64,000 bases of DNA from a virus: positions 3,361-67,360 of IMG/VR virus record IMGVR_UViG_3300021090_001018; one strand, 5' to 3'. How positions within the stretch are numbered: position 1 is the stretch's first letter; every line of letters starts with the position of its first letter. This document shows positions 1 through 37,965 of the stretch, one piece after another. A model generated the notes under the pieces. It saw only the letters and a program-made list of their open reading frames with translations, did not search any database and was not told the origin of the DNA. Both the position numbers and the translations under genes were made by a program.

Positions 1-386
1 AAGGGGAAGACCGCCTTAGCAATCGCCACGTCGCCTGCCTCACCCACCAGAATTATTGCGGATACCACCTTCCCACCCCAAAGGGAATGACTCCTCTCAA
101 TCACATGGACATGGAAAACTTCCCTGAGAACGAAGAAGACCCAATTATGGTAAGGTTGCTTGAATTTAGATCTGATGCGGAGGGTCTCGTCCTTCTCAAT
201 GGTGATGCTCCCTTTAACCTGTTCCTCGCTGTCCAGGTCAATGCTAGATAGCTCAATGTTATGAGCGATGGCGATCTCCCTCGCCTTGGCCATCGCGGCC
301 TCGACCTCACCTTTATAAGCGGCGCGGTTGTTGGCGAGTATGAGAATCTTTCTGAGCTTCTCAATTACTTCTGACGCAATTTTCAT
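1..386 (-). CDS. DUF2786-like protein, runs off the left edge
   Basis: Own translation from ATG 386: MKIASEVIEKLRKILILANNRAAYKGEVEAAMAKAREIAIAHNI..., open to base 1; KLRKIL.LA...EVEAAMAKA pattern. Confidence 0.65.
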   Translation of the reverse strand, partial: MKIASEVIEKLRKILILANNRAAYKGEVEAAMAKAREIAIAHNIELSSIDLDSEEQVKGSITIEKDETLRIRSKFKQPYHNWVFFVLREVFHVHVIERSHSLWGGKVVSAIILVGEAGDVAIAKAVFP

Positions 387-2838: not shown

Positions 2839-4190
2839 CCAAACTTCGTTCGTTCCAGTTGGAAGGTGTCCGCCAAATTTACCAATTTGGCGGTCGTGCT
2901 CTGCTGGCTGATGAAATGGGTCTAGGTAAGACTATCCAGGCCCTCTATTGGATCATCAAGATCCCCAAACGGCGGCCGGTTGTCATTGTCACCCCTGCCA
3001 GCGTCAAATATGTCTGGCAGGCTGAGGCCGCTCTCCATTTCGGCTTGCGGACTTCAGTCTTAGAAGGCCAGTGCAACGGACATCATCATTTGCCGAGCGA
3101 CATCATCATCCTCAATTATGACATTCTCAAGTCGTGGTTGCCTCTGCTGCTGAAGTCTCACCCCCAATGCGTGGTTCTAGATGAGGTCCACTACATCAAG
3201 AATCCGGCAGCCAAGCGAACCCGGGCCTCACTGAAGCTGACCGAGAAGGCCACCTCAGTCTTGGGCCTGAGCGGGACACCCCTCACCAACCGTCCCATTG
3301 AGCTGTGGCCGGTCCTCCAGGCGATCCGTCCTGACCTCTTCCCCTCCAAACACGAATATGCCTGGCGCTATTGCAAGCCAAGATTCACTCCCTGGGGCTG
3401 GATCTTTGATGGCGCCACCCACATGGGTGAGCTCAACCGCATCTTGCGCCGAGAATGCCTCATCAGGAGGCTCAAGAAGGATGTCCTTAAGGAACTACCA
3501 CCCAAGATCCGTCAAGCGGTTCCCTTCCGTCTCGATTCCTACCGCGAGTATGAAGAAGCCGAGGAAGATTTTCTGGGATGGCTCAGGTCCATCAGCCCAG
3601 CCCGCGCTAATAAGGCAGCGAAAAGTCAGGCATTGGTCAAGGTAGGCTACCTCCTGCGATTGGTAGCTCGCCTCAAGCTAGATCAGACAATCCGGTGGAT
3701 TGAGGAGTTCTATGAGTCCCATCCGGGCGAGAAACTGGTCGCCTTGACTATGCACACCCTCGTCATTGACCGCCTCAAAGAGAAGTTTGGACGCCGCGCC
3801 GTCGTCATTGACGGTCGGGTGGTAGGACGAATGAGGCAGGAGACGGTCAAACAATTTCAGAGCAGTCGCAAGATAGACCTCTTCTTGGGGAATTGGCGAG
3901 CCGCCGGGGTAGGCATCACTCTGCACGCCGCCTCCAACGGAGTGGCATTGGACCTTCCTTGGACTCCCGGTGACCTGCTCCAAGGTGAGGATCGCCTCCA
4001 CCGCATCGGTCAGAGGAAGAATGTTATCATCCACTACCTCATGACCTTAGGGACCATTGAGGAAAAGCAGATCAAGATCCTCAGGAAGAAGACCACCATC
4101 TTAGACGCAGTGCTAGATGGTCGATCGGATGCCTCTCACTTGAACATCTTTGACGAGCTGCTCGCGGAGATGAAGAGGGAGCGAAGATAA
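2835..4190 (+). CDS. SNF2/SF2 helicase
   Basis: LADEMGLGKT, LDEVH, SGTP, GVGITL, QGEDRLHRIGQ motifs. Confidence 0.95.
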   Translation: MTKLRSFQLEGVRQIYQFGGRALLADEMGLGKTIQALYWIIKIPKRRPVVIVTPASVKYVWQAEAALHFGLRTSVLEGQCNGHHHLPSDIIILNYDILKSWLPLLLKSHPQCVVLDEVHYIKNPAAKRTRASLKLTEKATSVLGLSGTPLTNRPIELWPVLQAIRPDLFPSKHEYAWRYCKPRFTPWGWIFDGATHMGELNRILRRECLIRRLKKDVLKELPPKIRQAVPFRLDSYREYEEAEEDFLGWLRSISPARANKAAKSQALVKVGYLLRLVARLKLDQTIRWIEEFYESHPGEKLVALTMHTLVIDRLKEKFGRRAVVIDGRVVGRMRQETVKQFQSSRKIDLFLGNWRAAGVGITLHAASNGVALDLPWTPGDLLQGEDRLHRIGQRKNVIIHYLMTLGTIEEKQIKILRKKTTILDAVLDGRSDASHLNIFDELLAEMKRERR

Positions 4191-34582: not shown

Positions 34583-36100
34583 TCACAGTCTCTCCCACTC
34601 CAATGGGACAATGTCACGAGTGTCTTCAGGTCGGCCTGGCATGAACCATTGTTTGGGCATGATTATTCTCTTGTTGGGATTTTGATTCAACCAGGCACCC
34701 CACCATGAATAGGTCGAGGCTGAACAAATATGATGCTCGCAGGTAGCCATGTAGGTAAGATCAGCCACCTCATCCGTCCCTTTGCTGATGGTAACATCCT
34801 TCCTCATCCCATAGGTAGCGCGGCACCAAGGGATGTCATCGGAGAAGAAGATGAAGTGATAACCAGGAAAGACTCGCATGGCCGCGTCAATCCACTCCTT
34901 AGAAACCAGCGGATGTTTCTGGGTTAGCATGAGATAGTCACCTCGCCGCACATGGACGGAGACGAATCCTGGAAGGGGTCTCCAAGGAAAACCAAACGCG
35001 GCAATGATTCGATCGCGAAACTCCTTGAAGTATTTCTCCGTCTGCCAGTAACCATCTAGGACGATGTTCTGGCGGCGCCAGATCTCCCGAAAGGGAAGCT
35101 CTTGGTAGTAGAAGACCCCCTCCGTGAGCTTGATCTCCGGCAAGCTCGGACTCCAGTCCGTGTTTACCAGATGCTGGAGGTAGATAGGGTTACCTTTGGG
35201 GTTGGTGGTCCGATTGGGAAGGGTGAACTCGAGTCCGTGCTTCCACGCATAGCCCATTGCAGCCGCCGCTTGGAAGAGGAAATTCCCCATCCTTCCATAC
35301 GTCCTAGGTATCACCATAGATCTGCCTTTCACTTGACGAAGTTTGTCCTCAACGACCCGATCGAAACCTTTAGTGAGATGATGATTCAACTTGTAATGAC
35401 TCCCATCATGGAGGCGATGAAAATAACGGAGACCCGACACCACCATCAACTGCCGGCCGGAGCGAAGCCAGTTATAGATCTGGTAGATGGAATCAGCGGT
35501 GTGAGGATTAACCGAACCATCCCAGACCTCCAAGTAACTCGCGCGGTGGACGAAATAGTTGCAGGTATTGAGGAGGCAACCAAAATTGGTCTTGTTTGGA
35601 CGGAGCGGGGTGCGACCTCCTCTGGCGCGATTGGGAACCGGAGGGGCTGAAGGGGCCGGAGGGGTCATCAGAGCCGCCACATTCTTTGAGGAGATTATCT
35701 GACCCGACCAGGATCGGTAGTCGAAGGAAGGTTCGGCAAATTCTGGACAATAAACCGTCTGGGGGTCCCAGCCCTCCAGAGCAAATAGAGCATCCAAATA
35801 GGCCTTGGAGAGAATGTTATCACTGTCGAAGAGAATAACCCATTCACCCATAGCCCGTTCCACCGCCTTCTGTTTATTGAAGTAGCAATCAAGATTCTTC
35901 TCATTCCGAAAGAGCCTAACCTTAGGCAAATCCCTGAAGCTCTCTACCAGTTTCTCATAGGAACCATCGGTGCTGGCATCGTCGCTGATGACAATCTCGG
36001 CAATACGCGGATCATCCTTTACCTGAGCGATGCACTCAAGTAGAAAGGCATACCGGTTGAAATGAGTGATGGCTAGGCTGATGGAGGAAGGGTGCATCAT
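34583..36100 (-). CDS. Fusion of GT2-like domain and GT11 alpha-1,2-fucosyltransferase-like domain
   Basis: SDDASTDGS, LFDSD; Pro-rich linker; GRMGNFLFQ, GYWQTEKYF, HVRRGDY, FSDD, STYSWWGAWLN. Confidence 0.9.
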   Translation of the reverse strand: MMHPSSISLAITHFNRYAFLLECIAQVKDDPRIAEIVISDDASTDGSYEKLVESFRDLPKVRLFRNEKNLDCYFNKQKAVERAMGEWVILFDSDNILSKAYLDALFALEGWDPQTVYCPEFAEPSFDYRSWSGQIISSKNVAALMTPPAPSAPPVPNRARGGRTPLRPNKTNFGCLLNTCNYFVHRASYLEVWDGSVNPHTADSIYQIYNWLRSGRQLMVVSGLRYFHRLHDGSHYKLNHHLTKGFDRVVEDKLRQVKGRSMVIPRTYGRMGNFLFQAAAAMGYAWKHGLEFTLPNRTTNPKGNPIYLQHLVNTDWSPSLPEIKLTEGVFYYQELPFREIWRRQNIVLDGYWQTEKYFKEFRDRIIAAFGFPWRPLPGFVSVHVRRGDYLMLTQKHPLVSKEWIDAAMRVFPGYHFIFFSDDIPWCRATYGMRKDVTISKGTDEVADLTYMATCEHHICSASTYSWWGAWLNQNPNKRIIMPKQWFMPGRPEDTRDIVPLEWERL

Positions 36101-37965
36101 GTGACCGAGGTAGGGATCCATGTGCAACGGCAATTACTTGACAAGATCCCATTTACACTATACATTGAACTATGAGTCGATACGTCAAAAACAAATACAC
36201 CTCCCCGACCAGATTCTACAATCTGGACATCGACGATCTCGTCGAACGCTACCTCCGCGGGGAGAGCCTCAACCAAATCGCCGCAGTCTTCCATTGTTGT
36301 CGTCACGTGATCATGACAAGACTTATCTTCGCAGGGATTACGATACGAACCCTCACTGAGAGCAATAGGCTGATGGCCAGCCGAAGAACCGCGAGCGAGA
36401 ATAGCTGGAATGCTCTTGCGGCTCAGAAGGCAGTCCGCGGCCGCCGCCAACCTTTCAAGGAGAAGCGACAGCGAGCTCTCACCATCCAAAAACAAGGGCT
36501 GACGAGTCGAAACGTCTCCACCCATGAGAAAGAGTTTTTTCGCCTGTGCCAGACACAGAGAGTGGAACTGACCCCTCAATTCGCAGTCGGAAAGTATAAC
36601 GTCGATTTCCTCATCAAGGGCACCACCGTCACCGTGGAAGTATTGGGGGCGGGTGCCAGATATTCTTCGGAGGTGTTTAGGAAGTATTTTGGAGATCGTC
36701 TCAAATACATTAGAAATCGAGGCTACTCCATCATTCTTATCTGGGTGTTCAATAAAAGTAGAATCAACCGACGATGCACCAATAAGACAATCGCCCTGGC
36801 GAAGGTCTTTAGCCAAACACCAACCACCCCGGGTCAACAACACATGATGTTCAGTGACGGAGAGCCGGCGATTGTGAAGAGTGGTCAAGTGAATCACTCT
36901 TCCATGATACTTTGCCCGAGTGAGGAAGAGTGCATCAGGACATTCAATGAGGCTATCACCTAAAACACAATTGGGGTGGAGTGGAATCATCCCACGGGCC
37001 TGTTCGATTGTAAAGACCTGCCCCTCCATGGGGAGGCAGAGTTCACACACCCTATCATCTCCCGCAGTGGACCACTCGGCTTTGATGCCTAGTTCCTGCA
37101 CCCCAAGACGATTGAAGGCGTCCAGCTGGCCCTCAGCGTGGGCGTTAATGATCTCCGTCCTCGCTATGGTAAGGGCCCGGGAACCTGCGAGAGATCCAAT
37201 TCTCTCGCCGAGCTCGCGGGCGAGATCCTCCGCTCCACGTCCATCAGCGATCCCTTGCGCGAGAATCCGGTTCATCTCCGACGACATGGTGGCCGTAATG
37301 CCACGCAACTGCTCAAAGGCCCGGGTGCCAAGCAATTGAACCTTGGACATCGTCTCCGGCTGAGCGAAGGATGACTTTAGGAAGGACTCCGATGACTGAT
37401 CCGTGCCGGTGATCGTCCGGGAGGAGATAAAGGCATTGAACTGACCTCTGCGATACGCAGACTCCACGAACTCGGTCGTCCATGGGGTTCCCGCCGGGGT
37501 ACCTGGGTCCGGTGACAAGACGTTCGCCTCAACTTGCTGGCGAAACCAGTCATTAAACGCACCGAGCTTCTGGGCATCGGTCCGGAACTCAAACTCCCGG
37601 GGTTGGACGTGTAGAGCGATGGTCTGGAAAGGAACGAGATGCTTCTTCTCCTTCAAACCGAGGGCATCCTTCTCCACCATGAAATCTTTCACGGCTCTTC
37701 GCAAGTTCCTAAAGGCCTTGGACAGCTCTCGCATGAACGCCCGGCGGAGCGAAAGAGTCCGGGTGGGGTCCATCTTTAATGGATTAGTCCTCTGGTTTGA
37801 GACGAAAGCATTCCCGGCCGACCGGCTCGCATAGTAGGCCGCGATAGCCGCCCGAGCCTTCCCTTTGGAACGATGACGAGAGACGATATGACCATGAGCA
37901 TCCACCTTGGCCCAAGGCTCACCAGGGCGGCCTGTAACGGGGCGATATTCGACGGTGTAGGGCAT
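36097..37965 (-). CDS. Head morphogenesis protein (MuF/SPP1 gp7-like), intein-containing
   Basis: RALTIARTE, WSTAGDDRVC..C, IPLHPN^CRC motif interrupted by an intein. Confidence 0.92.
   Translation of the reverse strand: MPYTVEYRPVTGRPGEPWAKVDAHGHIVSRHRSKGKARAAIAAYYASRSAGNAFVSNQRTNPLKMDPTRTLSLRRAFMRELSKAFRNLRRAVKDFMVEKDALGLKEKKHLVPFQTIALHVQPREFEFRTDAQKLGAFNDWFRQQVEANVLSPDPGTPAGTPWTTEFVESAYRRGQFNAFISSRTITGTDQSSESFLKSSFAQPETMSKVQLLGTRAFEQLRGITATMSSEMNRILAQGIADGRGAEDLARELGERIGSLAGSRALTIARTEIINAHAEGQLDAFNRLGVQELGIKAEWSTAGDDRVCELCLPMEGQVFTIEQARGMIPLHPNCVLGDSLIECPDALFLTRAKYHGRVIHLTTLHNRRLSVTEHHVLLTRGGWCLAKDLRQGDCLIGASSVDSTFIEHPDKNDGVASISNVFETISKILPKHLRRISGTRPQYFHGDGGALDEEIDVILSDCELRGQFHSLCLAQAKKLFLMGGDVSTRQPLFLDGESSLSLLLERLAAAADCLLSRKSIPAILARGSSAGHQPIALSEGSYRNPCEDKSCHDHVTTTMEDCGDLVEALPAEVAFDEIVDVQIVESGRGGVFVFDVSTHSSMYSVNGILSSNCRCTWIPTSVT
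36138..36174 (+). promoter_or_regulatory. Sigma70-like promoter for a leaderless antisense mRNA
   Basis: TTGACA (36138-43)-17 bp-TACATT (36161-66)-5 nt-ATG (36172). Confidence 0.7.
36172..36963 (+). CDS. HTH + DUF559/Vsr-like endonuclease encoded antisense inside the intein
   Basis: YLRGESLNQIAAVFHCCRHVI (HTH); STHEKEF...PQFAVGKYNVDFLI...VTVEVLG...DRLKYIRNRGYSIILIW. Confidence 0.8.
   Translation: MSRYVKNKYTSPTRFYNLDIDDLVERYLRGESLNQIAAVFHCCRHVIMTRLIFAGITIRTLTESNRLMASRRTASENSWNALAAQKAVRGRRQPFKEKRQRALTIQKQGLTSRNVSTHEKEFFRLCQTQRVELTPQFAVGKYNVDFLIKGTTVTVEVLGAGARYSSEVFRKYFGDRLKYIRNRGYSIILIWVFNKSRINRRCTNKTIALAKVFSQTPTTPGQQHMMFSDGEPAIVKSGQVNHSSMILCPSEEECIRTFNEAIT

Follow-up and report, generated by a model that had tools for sequence, protein, structure and literature searches.

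The locus analysed here raises the question whether a single stretch of DNA can encode an intein on one strand and, on the other, the nuclease that mobilizes it. It lies in a window of 64,000 nucleotides, positions 3,361 to 67,360 of the virus record IMGVR_UViG_3300021090_001018 in the IMG/VR database, where a MuF-type head-morphogenesis gene on the minus strand is interrupted by an intein of 279 codons and an open reading frame (ORF) of 263 amino acids runs antiparallel to the intein on the plus strand. We put the probability at about 0.85 that the locus is a two-strand mobile element, with the intein on one strand and the gene of a Vsr-like nuclease antiparallel to it. The original prediction, made from the window alone, had proposed such a selfish element and knew of no description of its architecture. 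The layout, the predicted folds and the strand-specific selection reported below bear out the first part; the second does not hold, since Gosselin, Arsenault and Gogarten (bioRxiv 10.1101/2025.01.02.630785) have already described inteins with an 'anti-sense VSR-like HEN' in the minor capsid (MuF-type) proteins of actinobacteriophages. The features of the locus, in window positions, are as follows.

36097 to 37965, minus strand: MuF / SPP1 gp7-type head-morphogenesis gene, 622 amino acids from the first ATG, a single uninterrupted frame.
36133 to 36969, minus strand: intein of 279 codons, with C1 at 36967-36969 and N279 at 36133-36135; the Cys+1 of the CRC motif comes next.
36772 to 36969, minus strand: N-terminal splicing subdomain, intein codons 1-66; intein frame better conserved; predicted local distance difference test score (pLDDT) 76-92.
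36250 to 36771, minus strand: intein middle, codons 67-240, the reverse complement of the putative endonuclease gene; codons 130-238 predicted disordered.
Intein codons about 98-130, minus strand: conserved F-H-G-D-G motif, within the intein middle.
36133 to 36249, minus strand: C-terminal splicing subdomain, codons 241-279, with blocks F and G; pLDDT 74-91.
36172 to 36963, plus strand: antisense gene, 263 amino acids, ATG start; predicted helix-turn-helix (HTH), helical linker and Vsr-like (EDxHD-type) nuclease.
36229 to 36330, plus strand: predicted HTH DNA-binding region, ORF residues about 20-53; AlphaFold helices at 20-28, 33-40 and 44-53.
36508 to 36816, plus strand: predicted Vsr-like nuclease domain, ORF residues 113-215, from structure and profile matches.
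36138 to 36166, plus strand: promoter-like site TTGACA-17-TACATT, inside the intein block G codons; putative function.

The coordinates and motifs of both the intein and the antisense ORF were reproduced as originally predicted. The MuF product reads ...IPLHPN/CVLGDS...GILSSN/CRCTW, the slashes marking the two ends of the 279-codon intein that interrupts the HPN/CRC motif. The MuF ORF matched Phage_Mu_F in Pfam (E 1.7e-12, residues 234-333) and the head morphogenesis family phrog_758 in PHROGs (E 1.4e-39). Its start is ambiguous (37773-37965, minus strand): the first ATG gives 622 amino acids, and the identical database protein P0151 has a later start and 558 amino acids, a length that would put the start at the Met of ...KMDPTRT.... 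The antisense ORF lies entirely within the intein and is codon-aligned with it, such that ORF residue j stands opposite intein codon 267-j and the ORF ends with a stop codon that, in reverse complement, reads as intein codon 3 (Leu TTA); the antiparallel overlap amounts to about 790 bp.

The codon-aligned register is the only antisense register in which synonymous choice alone avoids stops on either strand, by avoidance of TTA, CTA and TCA. The 33 Leu and 25 Ser codons among intein codons 4-267 include none of these three triplets, against 6.5 expected from the codon usage of the window (probability of zero about 1e-3). Nevertheless, 3 of 29 other long ORFs of the window also have, in the codon-aligned antisense register, an open run that reaches 264 codons or more (maximum 371), so that the avoidance of antisense stops, proposed originally as a test, is present but not distinctive. 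Such chance runs fit an explanation in which only the intein frame is functional, and the similarity and open frame of the plus strand are passive reflections of a conserved in-frame domain. An open antisense frame alone is thus only weak evidence for a gene, and because long antisense runs recur in the window, the case for the antisense gene rests on homology, fold and strand-specific conservation.

With respect to homology, a word-index protein search with the ORF returned one homologue only, and the family counts given here come from an exhaustive phmmer search, which found 1392 cluster representatives at E<=1e-3, 590 at E<=1e-10 and 7 at E<=1e-30, mostly of 230-310 amino acids. The closest homologue, database protein P0001, is 49% identical over the full length. 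In an alignment of 106 family sequences N143 and D145 are invariant, E119 (102/106), E156 (104/106), R176 (103/106) and Y142 are nearly so, and the consensus reads ...PQKAxGxYNVD...VAVEIFGGxWH.... The family profile matched, among PDB sequences, the tandem HTH protein 2lvs_A (E 4.6e-8), the DUF559 structure 3hrl_A (E 1.9e-5) and 3r3p_A, the catalytic domain of the homing endonuclease I-Bth0305I (E 8.7e-5).

The AlphaFold model built from the 106-sequence alignment had a pLDDT of 86 and a predicted template modelling score (pTM) of 0.77; the 10-residue blocks from 21 to 230 had a mean pLDDT of at least 83, most of them at least 94, and only residues 1-7 and 242-263 fell below 50. Foldseek matched the model to 3r3p_A (E 5e-4) and 1vsr (E 2e-3) with a probability of 1.00. 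By VIA-align, residues 113-245 of the model aligned with Vsr (1cw0_A; Z 11.2, 116 residues, root-mean-square deviation (rmsd) 2.6) and residues 116-215 with 3r3p_A (Z 10.7, 95 of 97 residues), followed by 1vsr (Z 10.3) and 3hrl (Z 9.9); the HTH part, residues 14-58, aligned with 7r6r_A (Z 5.2). On these models and profiles, the antisense protein is predicted to have an HTH at about 20-53, followed by a helical linker and, at about 113-215, a Vsr-like nuclease. This is the domain order that had been read from the letters, and the Vsr fold, the lack of which was to have counted against the gene, is predicted with confidence.

Which of the two strands is under selection can be seen from the comparison of the window with its closest DNA relative, the IMG/VR locus L001, in which the intein also has 279 codons and aligns without gaps. 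Over codons 1-66 the differences at intein codon positions 1, 2 and 3 number 23, 13 and 38, and the intein protein differs at 41% of residues against 62% for the ORF protein; over codons 67-236 they number 80, 26 and 58, and it is the ORF protein that differs less (35% against 52%). Among 11 embedded loci, aligned by their ORF proteins, identity over the middle was higher in the ORF frame (0.306) than in the intein frame (0.197), in 55 of 55 pairs; for the part that faces the N-terminal splicing domain the order was reversed (ORF frame 0.195, intein frame 0.345), again in 55 of 55. A weakness of this evidence is that the loci share ancestry, so the 55 pairs are not independent and the identity and codon-position counts are simple pairwise statistics.

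The comparison was repeated with an alignment built in the intein frame. The ORF frame was again higher in all 55 pairs over codons 67-236 (0.295 against 0.206), as it was over codons 131-236 taken separately, and in none of the 55 over codons 1-66; over codons 67-130 it was higher in 42 pairs and lower in 9 (0.295 against 0.259), and over codons 237-267 higher in 10 and lower in 41. Among 80 dereplicated loci, out of the 102 assembled below, the switch between strands falls at about intein codon 64/65, and the third positions of the ORF are the most variable over the middle. The tail of the ORF, residues 203-254, is a mere reflection of the N-splicing domain, and its motif V/M-x-x-G/S/C/R is the mirror of the block B motif T-x-x-H. 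These sequence comparisons indicate that the intein and the nuclease gene are both kept by selection, each in its own part, in agreement with the purifying selection on both strands for which a test had been proposed. For the tail, therefore, the explanation by passive reflection is right. Over the middle it is strongly disfavoured by the better conservation of the ORF frame in every pair, even in the intein-frame alignment, by the variable third positions of the ORF, and by the confident Vsr-like model of the ORF product, whereas the intein-frame middle is predicted to be disordered.

The same layout recurs widely. A tblastn search with the ORF found matches in 113 phage records, among them phages of Salmonella (62), Pseudomonas (14), Gordonia (8), Klebsiella (8) and Escherichia (6). 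Strands were checked in 7 of the 113, and in 6 of these the match is on the other strand from the annotated host gene: Gordonia phage Vivi2 (gp14), Pseudomonas phage vB_Pae_BR313c, Escherichia coli phage Snoke, Salmonella phage vB_SenS_SE1, Vibrio phage PvVp04 and Klebsiella phage RCIP0068. None of the six records annotates the nuclease gene, not even that of Snoke, in which the intein is annotated. The seventh, Acinetobacter phage IME285, has an annotated free-standing gene with 12, 12 and 24 stops in its three antisense frames. In a set of 12 loci that includes the window, an opposite-strand ORF covers the gene in 11, always codon-aligned. When the search was made from the intein side, with a block B pattern, all 11 loci found carried the antisense gene (E 1e-74 to 1e-99); in the 7 that were read along their full length, every stop lay before the start or at the genuine end, and 4 more had no stops inside the match.

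A 21-sequence sub-family alignment found 424 IMG/VR loci, of which the best 80 were analysed. The codon-aligned frame antisense to the nuclease was open across the whole nuclease match in 80 of these 80, within ORFs of 368-1075 amino acids, and the other two antisense frames averaged 14.1 and 8.4 stops. The nuclease gene itself was intact in 79 of the 80; a stop in the frame antisense to the intein, named originally as a ground for rejection, occurs in the remaining one, L074, where it lies in the HTH and may reflect decay of this copy or an error of sequencing. Of the 80 host ORFs, 50 matched a MuF hidden Markov model (HMM); 10 of the remaining 30 were compared with Pfam and gave 2 Phage_Mu_F, 4 Phage_min_cap2, one weak VG15 and 3 without a host family, with Intein_splicing in 8 of the 10. 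In all, 102 embedded loci including the window were assembled: the register is codon-aligned in 102, the nuclease ORF intact in 101 and the intein frame open in 102. A free-standing gene whose antisense frames are full of stops, together with 101 intact embedded copies among 102, leaves it very improbable that the plus strand merely mirrors the intein.

The intein frame has homologues in 16 database proteins, in which C1, G4, T39, H42, H112, D114, G115, Y270 and N279 are invariant; these include the N-terminal nucleophile C1 and block B, T39-E-H-H42 (T-x-x-H). At the other end, N279 is followed by the Cys+1 of CRC, so that both the C-terminal Asn and the downstream nucleophile are present. An AlphaFold model from this shallow 16-homologue alignment was confident over the two splicing subdomains (codons 1-66 and 241-279, values as listed above), with a pLDDT below 50 at 67-77, of 61-78 at 78-129 and of only 26-39 at 130-238. 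The model aligned with the Mtu RecA mini-intein 2in0 over 106 residues (Z 12.4, rmsd 1.9), a length of about the sum of the two confident halves, and 66 chains reached a Z of at least 8, the 50 entries listed being inteins, Hedgehog or intein-like HINT domains. The moderate pLDDT at codons 78-129 could be an echo of the conservation of the antisense protein. No Pfam family of the LAGLIDADG or HNH type matched the intein frame, as had been claimed from the sequence, and the further claim that the middle reads like antisense text agrees with its predicted disorder and with the better conservation of the ORF frame there. From its motifs and its modelled fold, we consider this a class-1-type HINT intein with predicted splicing activity.

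Apart from the long antisense runs and the shared ancestry of the loci, several observations weigh against a functional two-strand element. The Pfam matches of the ORF are all below the curated cut-offs: MTES_1575 (PF18741) E 0.0039, 17.7 bits against a gathering threshold of 38.2; DUF559 (PF04480) E 0.0067, 16.7 against 20.6 bits; and HTH_28 E 0.11; homologue P0001 has a precomputed PF18741 match. In the intein, the usual penultimate His of block G is absent, and Ser278 stands in its place, nearly invariant in the 16 homologues. In the nuclease, Arg (R163) occupies the column aligned with the catalytic His213 of I-Bth0305I, the residue mutated in 3r3p; of the 106 family sequences, 89 carry His there and 8 carry Arg. 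Phe (F169) occupies the second conserved His column (His in 72 of 106). The promoter-like site of the window is not conserved in its closest relative, L001, and the Shine-Dalgarno (SD)-like motif described below was absent in the window, L001, L003 and L008 when 10 loci were checked. Contigs of metatranscriptome run X7 are identical to 35991-36244, 36680-37004 and 37070-37400, but they give neither strand nor start nor level and could reflect DNA carry-over.

The Ser at the penultimate residue, together with an Intein_splicing match that is sub-threshold (residues 347-609 of the MuF ORF, E 1.9e-5, 25 bits against a cut-off of 35.8), might be taken to mean that the intein no longer splices and that MuF is inactive or tolerates the insert. 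Some active inteins lack the penultimate His, which is usual but not obligatory. C1, T39-x-x-H42, N279 and Cys+1 are invariant in the homologues, a confident HINT fold is predicted, the splicing domains are under purifying selection in the intein frame (55 of 55 pairs), and no embedded locus has a broken intein frame. A loss of splicing is, on this evidence, highly unlikely.

The replacements in the active site bear on a more serious alternative, namely that the gene is real and selected but that the window copy, or the small G-x-G-x-R-Y clade to which it belongs, is no longer a double-strand-cutting homing endonuclease. Its role may instead be that of a nickase, of a helper that binds DNA or resembles a maturase, or of a regulator; or the enzyme may be decaying, within an element that is passed on vertically. 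Besides R163 and F169, the window has N182 where the family has Asp in 57 and Asn in 36 of 106, and the Arg at 163 is common to the window, P0001, L001 and L014; moreover, most actinophage VSR-like cases look vertically inherited (bioRxiv 10.1101/2025.01.02.630785). Retention of E119, N143, D145 and E156 in the window argues the other way. The catalytic Glu and first Asp of I-Bth0305I (E170 and D196 by our own alignment count) are present as E119 (102/106) and D145 (106/106); its last Asp, D222, aligns by HMM to a column that is not conserved in the family, which keeps R176 in 103 of 106. The R163 clade is still constrained in the ORF frame, as the 35% against 52% residue difference between the window and L001 over the middle indicates.

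Intein-less alleles also exist as potential targets. Among 126 MuF-type proteins at the HPN-C[RK]C site, 87 are contiguous, 25 have inserts of 147-385 amino acids and 14 were not classified by the pattern; intein-less alleles occur at 55-74% extein identity, and the contiguous form is exemplified by P0167 (74% N-extein identity, ...IPLHPNCRCAWIP...), P0175 and P0199. We therefore regard a loss of cutting as unlikely, though deserving real weight. Because R163 and F169 replace conserved His residues, the cleavage activity of the window copy, as judged from its sequence, is uncertain. The original caveat, that EVLG in place of EVDG..H might make this copy catalytically weak, has to be restated accordingly: the absence of the Asp is normal for the family (consensus VAVEIFGGxWH; the comparison had been with DUF559), and the residues missing from this copy are His163 (Arg) and His169 (Phe).

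With respect to the target, the insertion point at the empty site is the centre of a 6-bp palindrome, CAATTG (junction 36970-36975 / 36124-36132), and the sequence recognised by I-Bth0305I is a pseudopalindrome with the cleavage site at its centre (Taylor et al. 2011, PMC3239194). We take the palindrome as a hint at the level of coincidence.

If the antisense gene is expressed from within the intein, its start signals should be sought in the intein C-terminal codons. The promoter-like TTGACA-17-TACATT of the window ends 5 nt before the antisense ATG, a position that suggests a leaderless mRNA; counting both strands, the 64-kb window has only 5 sites, this one included, with 10 or more matches out of 12. 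Three promoter-like sites occur in 35700-37300, which is not above shuffled sequences (1.5 +/- 1.1). Sites with at least 8 of 12 matches lie upstream of the start in 4 of 10 loci, at differing distances; in the Vibrio phage locus L010 a TTGACA-18-CATAAT (11 of 12 matches) ends 28 nt before the start. The nuclease start codon is the reverse of a His codon (CAT) in or beside block F, and GAGG or GGAG(G) lies 12-13 nt before it, within block F codons, in 5 of 10 loci (L002, L006, L007 of phage Snoke, L010 and L011), with AAGG instead in L005. Read on the minus strand, this SD-like GAGG and the start codon fall in conserved codons of block F (G-H-V-Y-[DN]-L). No sequence variants were seen at the locus in the DNA runs X5, X6 and X8.

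At one place both strands appear to be constrained by the same codons. The intein-frame motif F-H-G-D(-G), codons 109-116, lies exactly opposite the catalytic V-A-V-E strand of the nuclease (36622-36645, plus strand). ORF codons 153 and 154 are [GA]TC [GA]CC in 11 of 11 embedded loci and codon 155 is GTG in 10 of 11, whereas the free-standing homologue has GTG GCG CTG at the V-A-V-E codons. Because the synonymous sites of the nuclease are fixed in this way, the intein frame reads H-G-D (D-G-D in L004). Among the 80 dereplicated loci conservation has a joint peak there, with identities of 0.58 and 0.54 in the two frames and an ORF third-position divergence down to 0.38, and the invariance of H112, D114 and G115 in the 16 intein homologues agrees with both the fixed codons and the peak. 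From these sequence patterns, and from the start codon and SD-like GAGG that share conserved codons with block F, we tentatively propose, at somewhat less than even odds, that the overlap is a co-adapted dual-coding module in which both strands are selected at the same codons, beyond a nuclease gene lodged in a junk linker. Should folding or splicing depend on the intein-frame motif, the overlap would rank among natural antiparallel protein-coding overlaps as one of the longest and best supported; hundreds of phages carry it, and each partner could then change only together with the other.

Taken as a two-strand mobile element, the locus would work as follows. The late MuF gene would be read on the minus strand straight through the 279-codon class-1-type intein, whose HINT halves (codons 1-66 and 241-279) would fold together, with the roughly 175 residues between them looped out and largely disordered, and splicing would restore the HPN-CRC junction of MuF. 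The plus strand of the same DNA would encode the separate 263-amino-acid protein of HTH, helical linker and Vsr-like nuclease, of the kind typified by I-Bth0305I, made from its own start signals within the intein C-terminal codons. The nuclease would cut intein-less MuF alleles of co-infecting phages near the HPN/CRC codons, and repair would then copy the intein and the nuclease gene together. The antisense enzyme probably spreads the intein.

The discovery of the layout belongs to the 2025 preprint, and the window adds breadth and detail. Gosselin et al. (10.1101/2025.01.02.630785) report that 63 of 784 actinobacteriophage inteins have non-canonical endonucleases, the anti-sense VSR-like type among them, and that the non-canonical inteins as a group reside in minor capsid, terminase, DNA polymerase and thymidylate synthase proteins. 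They match the VSR-like type to 1CW0 (Z 10.6) and, by HHpred, to 3R3P, propose that free-standing endonuclease genes invade inteins, and cite anti-sense LAGLIDADG endonucleases from Gorbalenya 1998 and Gogarten 2002. The element of the window resembles their inteins in that it has a full, unsplit intein, a minor capsid/MuF-type host, an opposite-strand Vsr-like nuclease related to 1CW0 and 3R3P, and an unstructured intein-frame middle, and tblastn found the same layout in an actinophage, in gp14 of Gordonia phage Vivi2. Unlike their cases, the window copy comes from an uncultivated freshwater-sediment virus with 54% GC. Gosselin et al. call the architecture rare in a survey of PhagesDB only, whereas here it was found in the 6 phage records checked in which the gene is embedded and in at least 91 of the 424 IMG/VR loci found. 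In the text of their preprint, the word 'promoter' has 0 occurrences and 'purifying' 1. The present analysis extends the layout beyond actinophages, to phages of Salmonella, E. coli, Pseudomonas, Vibrio and Klebsiella. It adds that the register is universally codon-aligned, that selection switches between the strands and that both frames constrain the shared codons at the catalytic strand, and it adds the candidate start signals in block F/G codons and the atypical active site (R163, F169) of the window copy.

Related nucleases are known as separate proteins. Dassa et al. 2009 (PMC2677866) described 'fractured genes', in which an intein is split and a free-standing gene for a Vsr-like endonuclease lies between its two parts; free-standing genes of such nucleases are known from within split inteins and from introns (Dassa et al. 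2009; Taylor et al. 2011, PMC3239194). The antisense protein shares with fractured genes and with the EDxHD family of I-Bth0305I a Vsr-like catalytic domain preceded by an N-terminal HTH/NUMOD-type region, encoded as a separate protein at the place of the intein endonuclease domain, mainly in phages. It differs from fractured genes in that the host gene and intein are unbroken and the intein frame runs on through the nuclease gene, which points the other way; in the text of PMC2677866 the words 'antisense' and 'reverse' do not occur, and 'opposite' is used for charges only. It differs from I-Bth0305I (PMC3239194) in that the window copy has no His aligned to H213. Phillips, DeSimone and Gogarten (bioRxiv 10.64898/2026.09.14.751524) applied a frame-dependent selection test to the out-of-frame endonuclease of a dnaX intein. 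There, as here, the endonuclease is encoded in another frame than the intein and the alternative frame is the constrained one; the dnaX enzyme, however, is a LAGLIDADG endonuclease in another host gene and in the +2 frame of the same strand, unlike the codon-aligned antisense frame of the window.

A further comparison, at the same site, is with the inteins of the MuF proteins P0244 and P0272, which interrupt HPN/CRC and carry a Vsr/DUF559-type endonuclease in frame. They could suggest that the antisense gene arose by inversion of an in-frame Vsr-like domain within a MuF intein, and not by a free-standing gene invading a mini-intein: their precomputed matches are PF04480, PF18741, PF03852 and PF14890, and their nuclease domain is homologous to that of the antisense family (hhalign against P0244: probability 94.7, E 5.6e-8). 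Their splicing blocks are different, however (CFVDGQ...VVHN), with a zinc-ribbon-like insert, they keep the DUF559-type EVDGxxWH, their nuclease shows low similarity to the ORF of the window (BLASTP 24% over 98 residues, E 0.002), and free-standing relatives exist. An origin by inversion is accordingly improbable. In the literature we found no description of in-frame inteins of the P0244/P0272 type, although no search was aimed at them.

The CFVDGQ...VVHN intein type is found at the MuF HPN/CRC site not only in P0244 and P0272 but also in P0271, where it is a 147-aa mini-intein, and P0233 has a LAGLIDADG_3 insert there. Because antisense, CFVDGQ-type and LAGLIDADG_3 inserts share the site, MuF HPN/CRC is an intein hot spot with at least three intein kinds. 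Many MuF homologues, intein-bearing ones included, have C-terminal toxin-like domains (PF03496 ADP-ribosyltransferase; PF15644 glutamine deamidase), for example P0154, P0157, P0158, P0174, P0177 and L096; the MuF of the window has 11 residues after the intein. We take these C-terminal domains to be the known MuF polymorphic-toxin arrangement.

Directly downstream of MuF lies a glycosyltransferase-like ORF of 516 amino acids (34583-36133, minus strand). Its listed TTG start at 36133 would give it a 37-nt overlap with the MuF C-extein codons, and its true start is probably further in. The virus record has 67,360 bases and is about 90% complete, the GC content of the window is 53.7%, and the antisense gene is single-copy. 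The sequence is present in freshwater-sediment metagenome runs, and the portal protein of the window is at most 33% identical to that of any phage record.

For annotation, the finding means that a family of 1392 representatives is systematically hidden or mis-assigned, because gene callers accept one strand only. For biology, the locus offers a clean natural case of long antiparallel dual coding, over about 790 bp, with purifying selection that switches strand, and it links free-standing homing endonuclease genes, the split-intein 'fractured genes' and full inteins at a single MuF insertion site. Cultivable carriers for the study of antisense expression, of splicing and of homing exist among the Guernseyvirinae siphophages that infect E. 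coli and Salmonella.

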